Shown one piece after another: positions 1,856 to 57,097 of a stretch of 64,000 nucleotides of DNA (its first letter is position 1; every line of letters begins with the position of its first letter). The notes beneath the pieces are model-generated. The model searched no databases and was not told where the DNA came from. It saw only the letters and a list, made by a program, of their open reading frames with translations. The position numbers were made by a program, and so were the translations under genes. Origin of the DNA: Podospora anserina (lineage: Eukaryota); NCBI GenBank assembly GCA_017654855.1, contig CM030337.1, positions 1,922,001 to 1,986,000 on the forward strand. The letters are read 5' to 3'.

Positions 1856-4462
1856 TCACTTCCACCTCTGCCTCACGAAATATCCCGCGTCGAGATCGCC
1901 TCTATCCTTTAATTCTCTGAGTTGTTCCTCCAACTGGGAGGAACTTTGCTTCGGGTCGATGACCAGCATTCTGTGCTGAATCAAATCCAAGAAATCGTGG
2001 AAAAACCTTGTACATTCCGATCTTTCGCGCATGTCATCGGCGAACTGAGGGTTCTGGTTAGCCAATGTTCTTCTTCACTGTCTCGCAGTAAACTAGGGAA
2101 AGGCCGGACGTATACCATACCTGCGCAACATAGTCTTTCACCTCAGCCCAAACCTCCCCAGTGTGATCGTCCCTGGCTATCCAGAAAACGGCGTCGAGTG
2201 AACCCTCCCTCGCCCCGACCGCAGGTCAGGCTCTGCCCAGGCCGAAACAAAACTGTCAAAATATGCCCAGCCGCCAAAGCACCAGGTGGCAAACTCGAGC
2301 AGGACACATCCAAGGGACCAAATGTCATACGCTGTGCCAATCGACACCTGTCTTTCAACAAGATGTTCTGGGGTTTCAGGTCCCCATGTTGACAGACCAG
2401 CGTTCTCGGGTCAGGATCGCTCATGTTTTGATGAATATCTAATTCACTACAAAACAGAGACCTTCTGACAAGCTTTGCTCGTTCTTCAAAGCCGTCGGAA
2501 GAAGATCTTGAGCTCTGCTGGACTTGTCTTAGTGCTGATGTGAGGCCATGACATTGCTGAGCTAGCCACCTTGCCGTGCCCTCGTCATTGTGGGCTTGTG
2601 ACTTGTTTCCTGTTTTCCAGTACTGGAGAAGGTCACAGTCGGCCAGCGGGAAGAGAAGATGGAATTTCTCGTCATACTCGTACGTGACCAATAGGGTGAT
2701 GATATGTGGGTGCGGCTTTTTTTTCATGGCTTTGAGAATGCCGACCTCCTTGTCGGACTTCTTTCTGTCCGAGTCGGCGGAGTGAAGAGTTTTGACTGAG
2801 AAGTAATCGGGTTGAGTCGTGTTCTACGAGAGTTGTGTGGAGAAGCTTTAGTTGAAGGTCATGTGGTCTGGCGTACCTTTCGGTCTCCCTCCTGGCCGAC
2901 AGGCTTTGTCGTATCTATCTCCTCTGCCATTTGCTTTTCCCCTGTCTCCGCCCCCTTCCTTCCCTTCGAAGCAAATTCCTTGAACCCATGATGGGTCATG
3001 ATGAATTTTAACTTGCTCAACCTTGCCAGAGCCCCCCCTCCTTCCTACGGGCTCCAGCTCGAGGAATGGCAAGATAGTATGGCGCTGAAGAATGTAGTGT
3101 GTGATTTTGTTAGACGTATTGCGGGCGAAGTATGGCGAAAGGACTGTCCATTGCCAGGACTCGAAGTTTCTCCTGTCTTGTTTACTCCAAGATTTGAAGC
3201 ACGCAGTCGAGTGTCGGGTTTATCCTTCACACGGTAGCTCAAAGCGCTTCGAAACGGTGTGAATGACCGGAGTGAGGGCAGAATCAGAGACCCCTTCGTC
3301 GATAAATGCTTGGACCTTGTCTATTTTCTCCCCACACAACAAGATGATGGCGACGATCTTTCGGTATGTCACTTTGGGTTCCTTCTTCGTGTTGTTTGTT
3401 TCTTCCGAAACAATTCCGCAGACTTGTGAAGCGGTGATGCGTACTCGTTTCTCGAGGGAATCGCTGGTCGAGGGCCGGAAGTCCAAAAACTTTTTTGAAA
3501 GCGTCTCCGGATTGATCGATTCATGGATTCTTGTAGCTCTTGGACAATGACGTCTACCTTGATGAGCTCGTCAAGCTGAGACCTTGGTACAAACCCTTGA
3601 GTTTCCACCTTGTGATATTTGGGTTTCACGACAGCCCTGTGTATCTGAGACTGCAGACTTGTTGAGGTTAACTCGGAACTGGCACTGGATGCTTCTGACT
3701 TGGAAGAGGTTTCTGTGTCTCTGCGTCTTGAATACATTCCATCACCAAGATCCGTGATGACGGTGACGCTGGGCTCAATCAAGGCAGCGGGGGACCTTGG
3801 GATCTCTCCCTGCGTAAGGTCTGAGCCTACAATGTTGGCTTTATCTACAGGAAGAAGACGCTGACTTGTGTTATGTTGAAGCTTCAAATGGCCGTTTGTA
3901 CTTTTGCCGGACTAGAGTGTACTTTTAGCAATAATACCTTGAATCGATACCTGGCTCACTAGGTAAATCAAATAGAAATAGAAGATGACGGGCTTACGAT
4001 AATATCAGGTCCAAGACTGAAAACCTCCTCGTCCGCTTCGTCAGTACCAGCAAGTGTCGCGGTTCCATCCCGATCATTTTGGGTCAACCCCAGCAAAGCC
4101 TCGGGGAGATGTTCAAGACTGCCTCCATATAACATGGAGGGGCAGTTTGGCGTAACAGAACCATCGTTAGGCGTCGAAGGTCTCGGGCTGTGATCAAGTT
4201 CGCCTACCGCCTCTATATTGGCAATATCACTCGCCTTTGTGAGTAATTCCTCCAGCACTGATGGTTGACTTGGGTGGTTGAGGCGCGGCACAGGCTTCCC
4301 CGCTGGTGTGACGATGATAGGAATGACAACAGCGCCGGTGAGGGAGTCTGGAATATGTGGCATGTTTGCCTCTGGGGGCTCCTCATCGCCCCACAAATCG
4401 GTTTTGATAGGAATAGGTTTTTGCTCTCTGGAGCTTTTTGTTAGAGTATCTCTGAATATCAT
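1856..4462 (-). pseudogene. Ser/Thr protein kinase pseudogene, partner of the divergent kinase-HET gene
   Basis: ATG at 4462; intron 3912-3997. Kinase motifs are spread across frames: LPF..GGSGKVEQVKIH, FSVK, HPHIITLL, HGDLKPQNILL, YDIWSLGCVLLEFATW. At least 4 frameshifts (~3490, ~3235, ~3200, ~2995). The DFG/APE segment is missing at ~2345. Confidence 0.8.
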
Positions 4463-4571
4463 CAACTTTTACACATCTCTGCGGACGCCCGATACAATAG
4501 CGGCTGCTCCGTAGTCAGTTGACCTTAATCACTATTATCATCACTCTATCAAACTGAGTCCTGATCACATC
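4463..4571. promoter_or_regulatory. Very short intergenic region between divergent genes; putative bidirectional promoter
   Basis: Only 109 bp separate the divergent ATGs at 4462 (-) and 4572 (+). Function is inferred. Confidence 0.4.
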
Positions 4572-7500
4572 ATGGCTTCGAGCCCTATAACGCCAAGCGA
4601 CGAAGCACCGCATTACGACCTATCCTCATCTTCGTCTTCGGAAGATGGTGAGAATGATCAATTGTGCAACCTGATTATGCAGAGGGAAGCCACCAGTTGT
4701 TTCGACGGGGGCGGCCACATATTCACCCCAGAAGGAACCCTCGACGAGCTGCTAACTCCAGATGTCATCAAGAAGGAGCCAATGCGTTGTGCCCGCGATC
4801 CTCAGAAGGCGGAACGTGATATAGATGTTCTTGTCACCTACATCGAACAAAAGGCCAAGAAGCTATTCGCTATTGTTGTTAGACAGATCAAGTTCGACAA
4901 GCCTCATTATCTCAACAAGACTATGCACCTCTTCAAGCATGGTCCCAACGGCGGACTTTCAGATAGGAACCTCCCCCTGCCACGTCCTGCAGACGGCGAG
5001 AAACATATTTTGACCTTATTCAACCCGCCCCCTGGTAAGGGGAAGATGATATGGACAGAACGGAATATTGGCGAGTTCTGTAGATATCAATGGGCAGTCC
5101 AGGTTCCTGTTTTTCGTGTCGCCACCAAGACATCTTTCAGTCTCGACATTCCTCGGGGTCCTTGCCTGCCATTCATTGAGAAGGACGTGTCAACACGCCA
5201 GAGTGGTGGGTTTGGTGAGGTGGTGAAGTGTCGAATTCATCGCAAACATCTCATCAATGAAGAGAACCCAGTAAGCTGATTCAACCTACCTGAAACTATC
5301 ATGTCGAAACAGAAGTCTGATATTGCTGACACGCATACTCAAATTCAAAGAGCCTGACGTGGGGATACGTGGCCGTCAAGGAGATAGTGCCAAGAAATCA
5401 ACAGGATCGTGCCAAGAAATCAACAGGATCGTGCCACCATGATTCAAGATTGGGAGCAAGAAGCTAGGACTCTGCAAGAGACAAACACCCTTGGCCAGGA
5501 GCACATTGTGCAGTTCATCACCGCTTTTCGGCGTTGCGGAGCCCATTACATGTATCTCATGTTTGAATGGGCTGATGGCGGGAACCTTCGGAATTTCTGG
5601 AAAACATATCCCCGACCAATGCCAGCGTCGCCCACGTCAACGCCCGTTCGAGACTCGCTTACACAGATTTGGATGCTCGCCCAAGCACTCGAGGCAGCCC
5701 ATTATCCATCTGGGGATCGAAGGCGATTCCGTCACGGAGATTTGAAACCGGAGAATATCCTTTGGTTCAGGGACAACACAGGAGAAGGTGGTGGCATGGG
5801 TAAGTTCAAGATTGGAGATTGGGGGCTAGCAAAAGGGCATGACCTTGAGACGGAACTTCGTAGCAACAGAACATCAACTCCCTACGGAACACGACACTAC
5901 GAATCACCTGAAGAGAAAACTGGAACAGACGTCCTAGCCACCGGCGGCAAGTGACGATCCAGATTGTATGACATTTGGGCAATGGGCTGCATCACGCTGG
6001 AGTTTATCATCTGGCTATTGTATGGCTCGGATGGCTTGGACCACTTCAATCAAAGTATCGGACATGACAGCCCGATGTATCAAACAACCACCATGGTTGA
6101 GGGGAAGGTCGCCAGGGTACACGACGTGGTGGTGCGGTGGCTGGATTACATGTCAGGCCTTCCAGCATGCGAACCAGGAAGCACAGCCATTGGATCTCTT
6201 CTGGAGGTTGTCAAGAACAATCTTCTAGCTGTCAAGCTACCCAAAGGCCTGGGCTCTATGACAGGTTCTCCTCGACGCCGCTCACTCAGCAACATGGCAC
6301 CCAGAACCTCGGACGTCGATGTCATGCCCGCTTCGAGCTCCACGGCATCCTTAGAGGCCAACATGGCCCCGGGTTCGATCCCCGCAATCAAAATTTCGGA
6401 ACATGTGGACGAGAAATTAACCGAAGATCTGGAGAACATCGGGATTTCTGCTGGGCAAGGGCGGGCTCGCGCAAATGACCTTGTTTTGCTGATGGATCAC
6501 ATCATGCTGGAAGAAGACACCTCAGACAGTTATTGGTCCATTCAAGATTTTGCTGATTTAAGGTTACCTCAGCATCTCTCAGGTCACAGGCGGAACGAAC
6601 ACCAAGCGAGTATAATGGTTGTCAGCACGCGGCACAACGATGAAGGCACCAAGACTTCAGTGCCAGGCTCTACCGCGAAGCAAACGGTCTTTTTCCCACG
6701 TCCTGCCAATATCACCCAGAGTTATCTATTGGCTCCAGAACGTGTCGACTATGGCAGTCCACAATTCGATGAATTTTGGAAGCGCAGTGTGGATAACAAG
6801 CTCGCCGCCGTCTTGTTTGACATCTACCGTCGCTACCCGGATCCATCGTCACTCAGAGCCGAACCAACCCGCAAACTCTGTGGAACATGTCAATGCTCTG
6901 AAAGACTACTCCGTGAACCAGTTTTCAGCGAGGAATACAACCTAGGAACACTCAGATATTCCGCCGAGCAAGCGAAGTGTAACCTATGCGCGTTGCTCTG
7001 GGCGGCATGCCAGCAAACGGCACGGCCTCCGCCAACTACCGCCCGCTTTGATCGCAAAGGCTCCTACATACACATCAACTCCTCCGGCGGACCTGCTCTT
7101 TCCATATCCGTAACACCCTCTTTCAGTCTCCCATCAGAAAATGAAAACAGTGAGATACAAGTCGGACTTGTGCGGCTACCGCCCCTCAATAGTGATGCTC
7201 ATTTCGAAGTCATCCGACAGTGGCTCGCAGACTGCGACGAGAATCACGGCTGTATGACAACTGATTCACATAAGCCCATATCAGCCACTCGATCACAACT
7301 ACTTCCCACGCGCGTCATCGACGTAAGCCCTCCTGGCTCTGCTGATGTCCGCCCAGTGGAAACAGCCCGAGGATCGACCGGACGCTGGATAGCAGTCTCG
7401 CACCAATGGGGCGCCAAACCCTGCACCGTCAAGTCCAACCTTGCCTCTCACCTGAAGGGCATCCCCCTGTCTTCGCTCCCTGCCACATTTGCCGACGCGG

Positions 7501-8779
7501 TAAAAGTGACACGTGCCCTTGGGTGCCAGTACCTCTGGATTGACTCCATTTTTGTCGTTCAGAAGGAGGAGGATGACCCAGGAGACTTCAACAAGGAGAT
7601 GAAAAACATGGAGCAGTATTACTCTGGGGCATACTGTGTTCTGGGCCTCAGCGCGGGCGAGGGACACGGGGCTGGGTTTCTAGCGGAGAGAAAGAGAAGG
7701 GAAGTGGTGACGTTTGAAGGTGGAGGTGGAGGCCAGTTTCACATTGCGGAAGCAATAGATGATTTTGGGAAGCATGTTCTTCAAGGGCCGCTCAGGAGTC
7801 GGGGGTGGGTGTCGCAGGAACACGCTTTGGCGAGGAGAACGGTGTTCTTTACGGAGGCTCAGACGTATTGGGAATGCGGAGAAGGGTTAGGCGCGAGACG
7901 GGCACAAGGATGAATAAGTAAGTATCACTCAGCAGCCATTTGAGGGAGGGATCTCATGATAGAGGCTAACCGATACTGTTATCAGCACCCGGGCAGCCTT
8001 CCTGGGCGATCCCAAGTTTCCGTACCTCCTTAATGAATGTTGACCAAGGCGAAAAGATCCTACACTGCCAAGACCTTTTCAAGGTCTACTCACGTCTAGG
8101 GCTGACCAACAGCTTTGACCGCCCAGCAGCCATCGACAGCCTCCAGTCTCGAATCTTACGAGCCCTCAAGGCCAAGGGCAGGTTCGGTATCTTTGACGAG
8201 GGCAAGTCTTTGGGTCTTTTGCGGCGTAGTCTACTGTGGCAGCGGGATGATGGTTCCGATGATGGCATCAGCACCAACACAGAAAAGTTGATACCCATCA
8301 TCTTTCCCCCAGACACGGCCATCTCTGCGGTGCCGTCGTGGTCGTGGATGAAGTACGAGGGCGGGATCAAGTATGTGAATGTCGTGTTTGATAGTGTGGA
8401 GTGGGAATGGGTTGAATCACCCTGGTTTAGGACGAGGCATCGCCAACAGTCTGAGAGGAGACCAAGGGGCAATGATGTCACTCTGGTGACCAAGGTACAA
8501 GATGATGGTAATCGGTGTGGAGAGGGAAATATCATCTTGGATTGTCCTGGACAATCAAGCCCACATCTGCCACACAAGTGTGTGGTTTTGGGAAGGCAGA
8601 AGCACTTTGACGAGAGGAATGGGAGAAAGCAGCTTTGTTATGTTTTGATACTGCGTGAGACGGGGGGCAGCTTCATGCACCCAGGACACGGGAAGCTTAA
8701 GATTTATGAGCGAACTGGTGCTGGGAGTCTACCAGTCACATGTTTGGATGGTGGAAGAGTAATGGTCGCGATTCAATAG
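4572..8779 (+). pseudogene. Protein kinase-HET (heterokaryon incompatibility domain) fusion gene, disrupted
   Basis: Kinase motifs: GGFGEV, VAVKE, HGDLKPENIL, DWG, YESPE, YDIWAMGC. HET motifs at ~7386-7830: AVSHQWG, LPATFADAV, YLWIDS, MEQYYSGAYCVL, RGWVSQE. Post-HET PSWSW motif. Introns 5271-5350 and 7918-7985. Lesions: 22-bp duplication at 5387-5430, in-frame TGA at 5952-5954, frameshifts at ~7886 and ~8030. Confidence 0.88.
5387..5436 (+). repeat. Perfect 22-bp tandem duplication (gtgccaagaaatcaacaggatc x2 + gtgcca)
   Basis: Read directly. Removing one copy restores VAVKEIVPRNQQDRATMIQDWEQE. Confidence 0.95.
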
Positions 8780-9524
8780 GGAAAAGCTGAGGTGAATCAC
8801 AGAAACCATACAAGACTGTGGCATACCAGCTTACCTTAACTAGATGGCAGGCGACCCTGATTTCAATGTGTTTCATTGTCTCCCAAGTTACTCACTTGTT
8901 AACTTCCTACCTACAATCACAACTATACAATAAGCAGTTCCTTGACAGAAATTTGGATGAGTGGTAACACACTAAAGCAACAATTGTTTGTGACATGTTC
9001 ACCGATTCGGCCTGTGTAGGAAGTCGAAGATAGCTAAACGCTGGCCATATCCAAGACCCAGCTGAACTCACTCACCATGCTGTCAAGGCAGACTTGTTGT
9101 GGTTTAACTGAGGCTGAGCTCAGATAGCTCCTTCAACTGTTCACCAGTCCTACAGCTTGTCGTGCCACCTGAAACCGCATGCACCTAACCGCCGTGCTAA
9201 GTCCAGCCACAATCCTGAGTCAATCCTAGGTCTTCCTTTGACAGAATTGGCCAAAGACAAAGGGATAATCAAGGCTGACAGTTAAATAGGACGTCCACAT
9301 ACCGTGCATCTGCATGTGCAGTCCTCATGCACCGAGGCCCGCAGCCCCTCCTTTGTGCGACCACCGACCTGAGCCTCATCATGTCCTCAAAACCGCAATT
9401 GTTCCCAGTCTTCCTCCAGTTTATGAAAGCTTCCTCATCCCATGCTCCCAGTTTGACATCCACTGGAGATATCACATCTATCAACATCTTCTATCGCAAA
9501 ACACCAACTTTCATCCACCTTACA

Positions 9525-10172
9525 ATGGCCTTCCCCAACATCCTCTCCTGCCTCTGCGGCCCCACCTCAGACGACCATCCATCCCACCACGACGAGAAAT
9601 CCCCCCTCTACCCCTCCAGCACCCCATACACCGACCAACCCAAACCCCAACCCATACCCCCCTCTCTTTCCCCCTCCCCTTTGATCAACGACATCCTCAC
9701 CCTCCTCCTCACCACACCCCTCCCCATCACCCCCTCCGCCTCCCAATCCCGAATCGGCACCACCCTCGACCTCCACACCACCTCCTGGTCCGAATACCTC
9801 GCCGAAAAGATCCTCCATGCCCTCTCCGACCTCCTCGCCACCGCCACCGATCCCGAGTCCCGCAAGTCCTGGGGCGAGGCCCTCTCCCAAGCCTACGACA
9901 CCTCCATCACCATCGCCGAGGAGCTCTTCAATGACCTCGTCGAGTATGTCAAGGGCCACCCCTACGAAATCGCTGCTACGGTGCTCCTGTCATTGGTGAC
10001 ATTTGGGGTTTTGGTCCGTCTTGCTCCACGGGTGCTGGTGCTGCTTGGTTTCAGCGCCGAGGGTCCGGTGGAGGGGAGCTGGGCGGCTTGGTTTCAGAGT
10101 ATCTATGGAGGATACGTACCCAAGGGTTCGCTGATGAGTTACTTGCAGAGGCTGGGGATGACGTGGGAGTGA
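9525..10172 (+). CDS. 215-aa membrane protein with C-terminal ISG12/IFI6-IFI27 (Ifi-6-16)-like motif
   Basis: Intact ORF with ATG in a CACCTTACAATG context. TM helix followed by LGFSAEGPVEGSWAAWFQSIYGGYVPKGSLMSYLQRLG. Confidence 0.7.
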   Translation: MAFPNILSCLCGPTSDDHPSHHDEKSPLYPSSTPYTDQPKPQPIPPSLSPSPLINDILTLLLTTPLPITPSASQSRIGTTLDLHTTSWSEYLAEKILHALSDLLATATDPESRKSWGEALSQAYDTSITIAEELFNDLVEYVKGHPYEIAATVLLSLVTFGVLVRLAPRVLVLLGFSAEGPVEGSWAAWFQSIYGGYVPKGSLMSYLQRLGMTWE

Positions 10173-10340: not shown

Positions 10341-12042
10341 TTAAAACCTCTTGGAGTCTTTCTCTGGTTTAGGAGTTCTCGGTTCAAGCTTTTCCACTTG
10401 GAAAGACCTTTTCTCCAACGCGTCTGGGTCAAGCGTGCTGTTCCCATCATACTGCCGATAGGCCTTCAATGTAGACTCGGTGAGAGGGACGTAGACTTTT
10501 CGGATGAGGTTTCTGATTGCCGGGACGGGTTTCGGAACCGGGGGCTTGTCCTCATCCTCGAGAACGACCCCTGATTCTGAAACGGGTAGCTCGTCTTGTT
10601 CTTCTTGGGGGATTCTTGACACTAGTGCTTCATCTTGTTCTTTTTGGACGACCTCCGGGCCACGCGGTGTGGTGGCCTCACGGGTGACGTCCTGTGGATA
10701 AAAATGCGGGATCTTTCGAATAGGTATCCCGCTCTCAGTTTGAATATCATCAAACGACTGCCGGGCGTTTGGCTGATTTTTGCGCGGCTTGAAGGGTGAG
10801 TACCACATGTGCTCGGGTCCCACCTCGATGTTTGCAAACCACTCGTGCTCCAAGGCCTCGCGTGCCGTGATTCTCTTGCTTGGATCCAGATGAGTCATCT
10901 TGGTGACCACGTCCACAAACCCAAGGTCGACGTGATTCTCCAGCCCGGGCAAAGGCTTCCGAAGACCAAAGGTCGTTTCTTTGACGAGTTTGTTGAGGGG
11001 GCCGTACCACTGGTTAGGTTCGTCTTTGACTTGTTCGAGCAGCCCCATCAACGCATCCGCATCTCCGAAATGGTTGAACCATATCTCGAGTTTGGCCAGT
11101 TGTTTCTGTGTCGGGACACCGCTGGCGAGTCCGCCCAACGCCGCGAGTCTCTTCTGTGGGAATCCGGTGTCGGCACACTTGAGGTTGAGGTTGTTGAGCA
11201 TAAAGTTGACAGACGTGAGGCCAAATGAAAACACGTCAGATGGCCTGGCTTGGCGACCTCGGATCCAAAACTCGGGACTCTTCCAGGGCAAATCTTCGAT
11301 GCCGAGGCGATAATGATCGATACGCTGCTTAGAAAGGTAGGGTAAGACGGCGTCCTCAAAGCGACCGAGCTGGACCTTGTGGACGCCATTGGATGGACTG
11401 GATCCCAACTTTGGACCGTAGTCGACAAGAATGGCACTTGGTCTGATATCTGCATTTTTTGGTCAGCCTTGGATCGTGGCTCTAGAGACGGCAGAACGTA
11501 CTAAGATGGGCGAGATCTGTGTTGTGAAGCGCCGCCAGGCCAGTCAGAGCACGTTTGAGGATTTCCTTGCGTGTTTCGTATGGTAGCCCAGGATGCTCGC
11601 GGATTAGACCGTTGACATTATACGGAAGGGTGCGATATATCAGAAGCTGCTCGTCACTGGCGACGTCGTACAAAGTCTGCAAGTTCGGGTGCTGTTGAAG
11701 CATCTGAGATGCTCCAAGCAAGTGCCTGACTTGCGAGTACCTTCGTACTTCTTTAAGAACAAACGTTTCTTTTAGGCCCTCCACCCACTTTATCGCTTGG
11801 TATGTCCGGCATACTGGCCCTCTTGGTTTCCACGTGGAAACCTGTGTTATCTCGTACTTGTCAGCCCTCAACCCCCAAACCACGTCACCCAGTGCCTGTG
11901 GCGGACGTTCGACTGGTGGGAGTTTGTTGGAGTTTGGCTCGGATGCCTGGGTATGCTGAAAGCGACACAAGGTTCTGCCGCGATATAGGACATGATGTGT
12001 ACGCCGCACCCCAACTGGGGTCTGTGCTTGTATAGGCCTCAT
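10341..12042 (-). CDS. Protein-kinase-fold protein, likely pseudokinase (~549 aa)
   Basis: Exons 12042-11502 and 11449-10341 (intron GTACGT..GCTGAC..CAG) splice in frame. Motifs: FVLKE, HLNIRPSAIL, VQLGRFEDA, WKSPE, SDVFSFG, DPSKRITAREALEHEWF. Confidence 0.8.
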
Positions 12043-12234
12043 GTTTGTGAATGATGTTTGATCATTTTATTTCGTAGATATAGAGAAACAAATGTTCGAG
12101 ATATCAACGAATGGGAAGAAGCGTCCGTTGCAAATTCTTGCTCCACTTCTATCCGCCAATCGTTTCGCAAGATAAATCCACCAGCAAAACACCTGCTCGC
12201 AGCTGGTGATGGAGTTATAAAATAAAATACTTCC

Positions 12235-55454: not shown

Positions 55455-56619
55455 CTATATGTTGTCCATGATATCTTTCGCAGCCGATCCTGGTGGCCCT
55501 GAACTCTTCTGTCTTCCCCTAAGGTAGATGGCTATAAAGCGAGTAATCAGAAAATCCAAAGCTGGCGATGTATGGGTATACGTCTGCCTCGTTGGGTTTT
55601 CCTTTCTTGACAAGATCTCAATATCTTTCCTTAACAAGACCGCCGGCCAGCCTTAAGCCGTGCTATTGAGCAAGATGGCGATGATGAAGTGGACCGGGAT
55701 CAGGCCAATCGAAATGATGATTGCAGGCATGGAGCATGACGGGGAGCCAAGCCTATTCCCGACGAATTCAATGAGGAGCACGGTCTAGTTGAGATTGACA
55801 TTGTCAACTTTGGCGTAACCAGACAACTAGCCAGGGCCGAGAACGACAAAGGCTTGACATTACCTTGTTCCTCCTTCTCGATAACGCCGTCAGTGCATGT
55901 TGCCACGTGTTGGGGAAGAAAAGAATGCACAGTTACCTGCCTTCTCGTTGGGTTTCTCCGGGCAAGCCATTCCAAGACGAATCTCTCTCCCAAACGTGCG
56001 AGCAGGGACCAGAGGGGCAGCCTGCTAAAAAACTGCAGGAACACCCGGGACATCGCGGCATACACTACTTCACTGGGCCGGAGAATTCGGTGATTATGGC
56101 TGTGCCTCTCGGTCAGCCGCAGGCAGTAGGCTAAGTCGCCCATCTTAGAGCCAGGTATCGATGACGGAGGTATATACACCAATGTCTGCTGTGGGTAGTC
56201 CAGGGCTGCCATTAGCCGGAAAGGTCAGGGGCCCTAGCCGTGATTATCTGAGTCGAGCGTCTTTCTCACGAACCGAAAAGGGTGCATGTAAAATTCCATC
56301 TGGTTGCGTCGGTGAATTTGTTCAAAGTACCCTCCGATAGCGACAAAATCCACCAGGCGGACCATGGGAACTTTGACCGCAGGGTCATACTTCTTTCGCC
56401 GGTGCCGCATGTCCATGCGTAAGGCTGCTGGGTCCGCAAAATATTTCCATCGCAACGACATTTATAGCAAGTCTGGAGCATGCAAGCCGAGGTGCGGATT
56501 CTCAGTCTGAAATCTTTCGAGAATGTCAAAGGCCTCTCTTGAAGTTGGCGGTTCATTTTGAAGATAGGCATCAGAAAGAAGTCTTGCGTTCCTGGGTTCG
56601 TGATGTTGATGATAGACAT
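55455..56619 (-). pseudogene. Possible fragmented gene remnant between two 21-bp arrays
   Basis: Consecutive same-strand ORF fragments (56266..56619, 56234..56461, 55700..56212, 55455..55637) with protein-like composition. No family recognised. Confidence 0.3.
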
Positions 56620-57097
56620 GGGGTAATTGTCATTGACTGTTGGATTTCCCGTGCAAGATCCAGTTTCGTTATCTCTGGGAGCTTGAGTTCACGACCGGTT
56701 TGGAATCTGCTAGCTAAGGTAGCCTCTTGGATTCTGCGGACAAGGTGAATTGTCCCCAGGGCTTGCGTTTGTTTGGACGAATGACGAATAACTTGAAGTT
56801 AGGGAGAGCATGATCCCTGTACAGGTGGGCGTGAGGTATCGCGAATTTAGTCGTTTCACCGGTTCCGACATCTCTTTTCCCGAGCCCAAAGCTCTTCCCA
56901 ACCAGGTGATGTGACAGCGGCGTCCTCTGCTTGGTTCTCAGTGTTGCCAGTGAAACCATCTCTGCCGACTGGGGCACAATATCCTCGGACTATGCACAGC
57001 AAATGGCAAAGCAGCAGTTGGCTGGCTGTTCTGGAATCCGGGTCGAGTCGAACTCAATGTCAACTTTGAGTTCTTTGTGTTCCCCTAAGATACCTTA

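Follow-up and report, generated by a model that had tools for sequence, protein, structure and literature searches.

The question raised by this locus is whether two divergently transcribed kinase genes, only one of which carries a HET domain, form a working unit for cell death or non-self recognition in fungi. The locus lies in a 64,000-nucleotide stretch of Podospora anserina DNA (the window; assembly GCA_017654855.1, contig CM030337.1, positions 1,922,001 to 1,986,000; G000:C7:1922001-1986000, labels C1-C8 being contigs of this assembly). Fungal genomes contain dozens to more than 100 HET genes whose trigger is not known, which a review counts among the most obvious gaps in our understanding of fungal immunity (PMC10197012, in part; here and below, "in part" marks sources cited from passages). 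In this work, we found that the locus is a decayed copy of an old and repeatedly duplicated cassette of filamentous ascomycetes, in which a partner kinase gene (A) is transcribed away from a micro-gene (X) and a kinase-HET gene (B) that follow each other on the opposite strand. This two- to three-gene cassette is real, conserved, and apparently undescribed. The initial annotation of the window had proposed a two-gene cell-death or non-self-recognition module; it missed both the loss of function in this copy and the micro-gene that is often a third member of the cassette.

The gene pair in the window

The domain content read by the initial annotation held up. A common N-terminal pre-kinase region was found in both A and B, and Pfam Pkinase matches both window proteins; the HET domain is confined to B (Pfam E = 1.4e-19, 71 bits against a cut-off of 22.5; none in A). 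With a HET match above the cut-off and a PSWSW motif downstream, B belongs to the TOL/PIN-C type; this motif is nearly invariant across 42 homologs, and HET lineages that carry it have been described (PMC10890737, in part). The orthologues are P0195 (46-67% identity by segment) and P0259 for A, and P0001 for B (56% identity over 1143 columns).

Both genes are pseudogenes (Table 1). In gene A, the reading frame shifts near 3487 and is interrupted by a stop at 3220-3222, and approximately 53 codons are lost together with a frame change at 2356/2350, where the alignment jumps from residue 415 to residue 469 of P0195. The missing codons correspond to the DFG motif and activation segment, such that this copy lacks the full set of catalytic motifs. 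The kinase domain of gene B contains a frameshifting tandem duplication of 22 bp (near 5393) as well as an in-frame TGA (5952-5954) and is accordingly not an intact kinase open reading frame (ORF); further frame changes occur near 7889, just after the HET core, and near 8035. All sampled words of the locus were present in 14 of the 24 listed sequencing runs, a list that favors runs identical to the window sequence. Two contigs from other runs that cover the whole stretch, possibly of the same strain, have zero differences from the window, so that the lesions of A and B are not assembly errors. Repeat-induced point mutation (RIP) was rejected as the cause of decay because the dinucleotide indices are no different from those of the window background. 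Two runs that are probably RNA covered B from 5483 to 8846, with its second intron spliced; no listed piece fell on the coding part of A, which is not evidence that A is silent.

Recurrence of the cassette in Podospora and other fungi

Searching the genome with the C-lobe of the B kinase and the HET frame yielded 66 matches, with both subfamily parts present at four places, and in all four the kinase-HET gene is head-to-head with a non-HET family kinase (genome counts of kinase-HET genes and solo family kinases are lower bounds). In the cassettes at C7:4112-4120k and C1:498-506k, the kinase-HET gene is divergent from a second kinase with a pre-kinase domain, and the start codons are separated by 1.45 and 1.07 kb, respectively. 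At C6:3453-3457k, both kinases are reduced to their C-terminal ends, which are fused back to back near the same motif (L009:3400-4500, corresponding to G000:C6:3453.4-3454.5k). This remnant reads as a single deletion that took both N-terminal halves.

A protein search in which the N-terminal half of P0001, the intact orthologue, served as the query found 186 proteins. The best 120, which were listed as B homologs, come from Sordariomycetes, Dothideomycetes, and Leotiomycetes, and most have a HET domain. In a quick tree, partner (A) and HET-linked (B) kinases were split with a Shimodaira-Hasegawa-like approximate likelihood ratio test (SH-aLRT) support of 96, with the C1 partner kinase, which has a long branch, grouping on the B side. 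The paralogy of A and B claimed earlier is real but distant: the intact orthologues of A and B are 24% identical across 433 columns and fall into separate clades.

Accessions were looked up for 30 proteins (22 A-type, seven kinase-HET, and one other), a choice that was not blind, being made of A-types near known partners and B records with equal contig size. In seven public genomes from two classes (Sordariomycetes and Dothideomycetes), A and B are one or two accession numbers or tags apart, numbers that carry no orientation information. Paraphoma (KAH7093392/393) and Cosmosporella (Fc.00g043260/270) have them at successive numbers. In Cladorrhinum, Lophium, Aaosphaeria, Bipolaris victoriae, and B. 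zeicola, the numbers differ by two, and the protein in the middle is presumably X. Three further A/B record pairs are tied only by equal contig size (Nemania, 37 kb; Didymella, 336 kb; and an ENA contig, 13.8 kb). For the remaining 11 A-types, there was no same-record B among the matches listed, which is uninformative. Eight of the 120 listed B homologs are single gene models with an A kinase ahead of the B kinase; the linkers could be merged neighbors, and these models may represent either same-strand neighbors or true fusions. Tandem models of this kind come from Colletotrichum, Plenodomus, Cucurbitaria, and Stylonectria. In P0025, an AAA lid is merged ahead of the A kinase.

A metagenome scan yielded 78 loci, of which 32 belong to the family; the other 46 (L046-L091) were excluded as weak generic kinase matches (L046 and L073 were checked). 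A HET domain was found in 11 family loci, four of these with at least 3 kb upstream. Head-to-head pairs occur in L014, L016, and L027, with L014 ending before the HET domain. Other arrangements include two head-to-head A-types in L039 and tail-to-tail pairs of family kinases in L031 and L045. Syntenic metagenome contigs differ in the HET half of the kinase gene (L028 vs. L030; L019/L020 vs. L017), and the HET-less forms among them have a DUF7580 gene upstream.

The tree distances of A and B are correlated (21 pairs; Mantel rho 0.87, p 2e-4), a value that is inflated by shared ancestry and is not proof of interaction; the pairs include the unlinked Triangularia orthologues, the three pairs of equal contig size, and six tandem models. 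Pleosporales pairs form two separate groups in the A tree and in the B tree alike, indicating that the cassette was duplicated as a unit. With exceptions, A and B have the conserved linkage and co-evolution of a micro-clustered gene pair. The check suggested in the initial annotation, namely how often a kinase-HET gene has a paralogous kinase within 500 bp, had a mixed outcome: many kinase-HET genes are paired with a family kinase, linkage is not universal, and the threshold proved unsuitable because it would miss the intact cassettes, with start codons 1.0-1.45 kb apart.

The micro-gene X

X is a small spliced gene of approximately 66 amino acids (aa) that is unannotated and has no Pfam match. 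It is located between A and B on the strand of B in L004, L014, and L016, and upstream of B in L018; it is merged into three B gene models and also adjoins an A-type kinase in L045. An Atlas search with X gave only leads below 0.8, two of them Ascomycota clusters of 66-75 aa. A genome search with a piece of X was blank even at known X sites, such that the blank is uninformative. X is a micro-gene family found repeatedly next to kinases with a pre-kinase domain, whether or not a kinase-HET gene is present. The short spacer of the window may be due to loss of X. The initial annotation had described two kinase genes diverging from 109 bp; the divergence stands, and the spacer does not, as the ATG at 4462 lies in a dispersed repeat and 109 bp is atypical. 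With X and both reading frames lost, the window copy is non-functional. At L101:2621-7818 and L036:4202-4987, pre-kinase family kinases adjoin ORFs that may be CorA-like; Pfam gave no match for L036, and the X profile gave none in L101.

Expression during incompatibility

Podospora gene-model names were assigned by gene order, not by sequence. The order in the window region fits Pa_6_1980 (major facilitator superfamily), 1975 (kinase-like), 1970 (kinase plus HET), 1960, 1955 (kinase), and EXO84, and the intact cassettes correspond to Pa_6_10460-10490 and Pa_1_1400-1420, with Pa_6_10480 at the position of X. During incompatibility, all seven gene models of the two intact cassettes were induced 11-45-fold (PMC3689799). 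Pa_6_10460, 70, 80, and 90 were up 15-, 25-, 45-, and 34-fold, within a larger induced cluster, and the window pair was up only 1.7- and 2.2-fold; in the same data, 2231 genes were up genome-wide, 433 of them more than 10-fold (PMC3689799).

Proposed mechanism and alternative explanations

The HGD-x-K-x-x-N catalytic loop, of the non-arginine-aspartate (non-RD) kind, is kept in both kinase types, with HGD[IL]KP.N in most sequences. DFG is present in 126 of 148 A-type sequences and DWG in 99 of 120 B-type sequences. Non-RD kinases are typical of immune signaling. A confident structure model of an A-type protein (predicted local distance difference test, pLDDT, 80.5) matched kinases only in fold searches, with Z up to 20; the pre-kinase domain had no match of its own in these searches of the whole model, which the kinase dominated. 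Judged by motif and predicted fold, intact family members are probably active Ser/Thr kinases. P0195 folded without alignment gave a pLDDT of 37 and was discarded, and prediction of the Nemania A/B complex without alignments scored 0.00, which is no answer. The HET domain is TIR-related and sufficient for cell death when overexpressed (PMC12881547, in part).

A and B are linked, jointly duplicated, and co-induced, with conserved catalytic motifs in both kinases. We propose that the shared divergent region would turn the cassette on during non-self or death responses. A would then act as the upstream regulator that phosphorylates and so activates B, X may be a small adaptor or brake, and activated B would let its HET domain signal or execute regulated cell death; the logic would resemble the relay from RIPK to MLKL, or from a sensor kinase to its executor, with HET as the output. 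That A activates B by phosphorylation, that X modulates this, and that HET gives a death or defense output is, in our estimate, slightly short of an even prospect. The wider proposal is more tentative and somewhat doubtful: an undescribed, widespread kinase-relay death pathway of filamentous ascomycetes, contained in one self-sufficient cassette, in which a non-RD sensor kinase and a micro-protein of about 66 aa control a paralogous kinase-HET/TIR-like enzyme.

Several observations weigh against this relay. More than half of the HET genes and 21% of all genes were up during incompatibility, and induced genes cluster (PMC3689799). Upon bacterial challenge, the C1 trio was up and Pa_6_10490, the A gene of the other cassette, was down (scale unchecked; PMC4835503, in part). 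Linkage has exceptions: the Triangularia orthologues are on different contigs (A is partial there), as are two Xylaria curta records; five of the nine non-HET family kinases in Podospora have no kinase-HET gene in the 10-kb stretches examined; and of the four metagenome loci that have a kinase-HET gene and 3 kb or more of upstream sequence, two (L021 and L028) have no linked A, the kinase-HET gene being apparently intact. X is found beside A-type kinases with no adjacent B (L012, L038, and L041), and a search of the window, C1, and L027 pairs found no X. Congruent trees are also expected from long linkage with no interaction. Finally, killing, phosphorylation, and binding are steps that we infer.

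An alternative is that A, with X, holds B off as a guard or antidote, and that a pathogen disabling A or X frees HET-mediated death. The pattern in the Podospora genome fits this explanation, with all four of the B genes found accompanied by A, A alone in five of nine cases, and both partners dead in both decayed copies (the window and C6). On the other hand, A is co-induced with B rather than constitutive, and the apparently intact kinase-HET genes of L021 and L028 favor an activator role of A over an obligatory antidote. We regard a guard role as unlikely, though worth weighing.

The cassette might instead be a non-lethal signaling unit, co-regulated and co-inherited, in which the two kinases have parallel roles or common substrates and HET gives a signal for a stress or development response. 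Pre-kinase family kinases do occur in other cassettes (L101 and L036), most HET genes are not het genes, and Aspergillus nidulans strains deleted for related Ffk kinases were viable and revealed no phenotype (PMC3591445, in part). The strong joint induction in a death reaction and the complete TOL/PIN-C-type HET module argue against this explanation, which we consider rather improbable.

A further explanation is that in some species the cassette is a true het locus for allorecognition, at which certain combinations of A and B alleles are incompatible. Het loci of adjacent genes with a HET partner are established (Bh/Bp; PMC10890737, in part), and the presence of the HET half varies among the syntenic metagenome contigs described above. 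Among the listed runs, a selection biased toward runs identical to the window, there was no divergent allele of the window locus. To our knowledge, none of het-S, het-C, het-Q, and het-V is a kinase pair. All nine known P. anserina het loci have been cloned (het-S, C, E, D, R, Z, Q, V, and B), with E, D, R, and Z encoding NOD-like receptors (NLRs) and B a HET-lectin/PII pair (PMC10890737, in part); the window locus is none of these. In Neurospora, NCU06583 and NCU06582 are adjacent and are the Table S1 orthologues of the HET model and A of one intact Podospora cassette (PMC3689799), and NCU06583 encodes HET plus kinase (PMC10684091, in part). NCU06583, the gene for which the suggested check for balanced polymorphism could be made, has low diversity (pi 0.0014), a Tajima's D of -1.71, and KSmax of 0.007 (PMC4540973 supplement, in part); a signature of balancing selection is absent. 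The linked two-kinase module of the initial annotation is well supported by repeated linkage, congruent trees, and co-induction, while its allorecognition reading is not, and a het locus is quite improbable. Instead of a polymorphic het locus, the cassette appears to be a module for induced defense or death.

Lastly, the linkage could be neutral, left over from an ancient inverted duplication or from gene dumping in variable regions, with A and B functionally uncoupled. This explanation could draw on the paralogy of A and B, the unlinked copies, and the variable orientation (tandem models; tail-to-tail pairs in L031 and L045), but it is very improbable given retention of the pair across Sordariomycetes and Dothideomycetes despite 24% A-B identity, duplication as a unit, frequent retention of X, and co-induction.

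Comparison with known systems

A literature search for a kinase/kinase-HET pair turned up no study (subscription journals were mostly outside its coverage), in agreement with the earlier statement that this architecture has no characterized precedent. A report considered as a possible source on kinase-HET fusions (Kosti 2010; PMC2838846) was rejected, as HET occurs zero times in it. The nearest described kinases are FfkB and FfkC of A. nidulans, whose best hits are NCU06582 and NCU06583; unlike the cassette kinases they have ankyrin repeats (PMC3591445, in part), and none of the cited passages on these kinases and on NCU06582/NCU06583 mentions the pairing, the pre-kinase domain, X, or a function. 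According to these published best-hit tables, the cassette kinases are probably related to the uncharacterized Ffk group (FfkB-E).

Like Podospora het-B (Bh HET-lectin/Bp PII-like) and other pairs of HET genes and neighbors, the cassette places a HET gene beside a partner across distant ascomycetes in variable orientation (PMC10890737, in part). It differs in that the partner is a paralogous kinase, that the HET protein has its own kinase, and that no divergent haplotypes or incompatibility were seen. Fungal gasdermin/protease two-gene clusters are likewise micro-clustered regulators and executors (PMC10197012, in part), but they act by proteolysis and pores, whereas the cassette would act by phosphorylation and HET.

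Outside fungi, necroptosis through RIPK1/RIPK3 and MLKL also has a kinase upstream of a kinase-fold protein bearing a death domain (PMC12881547 and PMC10197012, in part). In contrast to the HET/TIR-like output of the cassette, MLKL has a four-helix membrane domain, and it is a pseudokinase, whereas B keeps catalytic motifs. Cereal tandem-kinase/NLR and NLR/MLKL pairs resemble the cassette as paired genes; in them, neither the kinase protein nor the death executor is dispensable (bioRxiv 10.1101/2024.08.30.610185 and 10.64898/2026.08.07.743466, in part). Some gene models here place two kinase domains in tandem, though these may be merged neighbors. The cassette has no NLR or known ligand, and this analogy is functional only.

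If the proposed relay is true, fungi would have their own equivalent of RIPK-MLKL and plant kinase-fusion immunity, and HET domains a first switch that works by phosphorylation and is independent of NLRs; the core of kinase plus micro-protein may drive other outputs too. The cassette offers a candidate regulator (A), cofactor (X), and mechanism (phosphorylation) for one widespread class of HET proteins. The window copy itself is a decayed example, and the question is directly testable because apparently intact copies exist in two model fungi (the Podospora cassettes and Neurospora NCU06582/NCU06583).

Neighboring genes and other features

Table 1. Coordinates of the window features, solo family kinases, and copies of X.
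Feature	Coordinates	Strand	Description
Gene A	1856..4462	-	Non-HET partner kinase, pseudogene; low-complexity N-terminus, pre-kinase domain, HGD-type non-RD kinase
Gene A stop codon	1856-1858	-	Start at 4462 or 4363
Gene A predicted intron	3997-3912	-	Joins first two open frames in phase; splice sites predicted from sequence only
A pre-kinase domain	3058..3660	-	With frameshift and in-frame stop
A kinase domain	1877..2823	-	Alignment to P0195
Divergent spacer	4463..4571		109 bp, or 208 bp counted from ATG 4363
Dispersed repeat	4390..4498		Approximately 100 bp; overlaps A start codon 4462; nine other genomic places, 74-93% identical; no Rfam family
Gene B	4572..8779	+	Kinase-HET pseudogene: pre-kinase, kinase (HGD/DWG), Cys-rich linker, HET, PSWSW domain
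Gene B ends	ATG 4572; stop 8777-8779	+	ORF reading
Gene B first intron	5271-5350	+	Predicted from sequence
Gene B second intron	7918-7985	+	Spliced in runs guessed to be RNA
B pre-kinase domain	4668..5168	+	
B kinase domain	5172..6239	+	Contains 22-bp duplication and TGA
B conserved Cys-rich segment	6750..7184	+	N-terminal to HET
B HET domain core (PF06985)	7386..7820	+	Pfam
B post-HET domain	8030..8779	+	PSWSW motif, TOL/PIN-C type
Solo family kinase	C4:266k		10-kb stretch examined
Solo family kinase	C5:3320k		10-kb stretch examined
Solo family kinase	C6:2723k		10-kb stretch examined
Solo family kinase	C6:3637k		10-kb stretch examined
Solo family kinase	C8:747k		10-kb stretch examined
X copy	L004:1535-1773	-	
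X copy	L014:2676-2930		
X copy	L016:5120-5350		
X copy	L018:788-994		
X copy	L012:7790-8004		
X copy	L045:8101-8293	-	
X copy	L038:2801-2896		
X copy	L041:1804-1911		

A suspected resemblance of the dispersed repeat at 4390-4498 to a piece of U3 snoRNA found no support in Rfam. Among the copies of this repeat (L093-L099), the longer ones contain a GC-rich hairpin, and one copy is part of a contig of very high depth in two runs that are probably RNA.

An intact cassette is followed by genes for a subtilase (S8; L004:5296-6794, minus strand) and an AAA/DUF7025 protein (L004:8148-9999, minus strand), which by gene order were induced 3- and 48-fold, respectively. One solo A-type kinase (L011:5055-8724, minus strand) has a long N-terminal extension and belongs to the cluster of PODANS_4_5900; PODANS_4_5900 was induced 5-fold and its neighbor Pa_4_5890 9-fold. 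Beside the window cassette, a gene at 9525-10172 (plus strand) encodes a protein with an Ifi-6-16 (PF06140) C-terminus and is by gene order Pa_6_1960, which was 9-fold up in incompatibility. It is followed by an atypical kinase of another type at 10341-12066 (minus strand), by gene order Pa_6_1955, which was approximately 5-fold down. Farther along the window, 56431-56733 (plus strand) has a weak match (E 6e-4) to the segment N-terminal of the B HET domain and is possibly the remnant of a HET gene.

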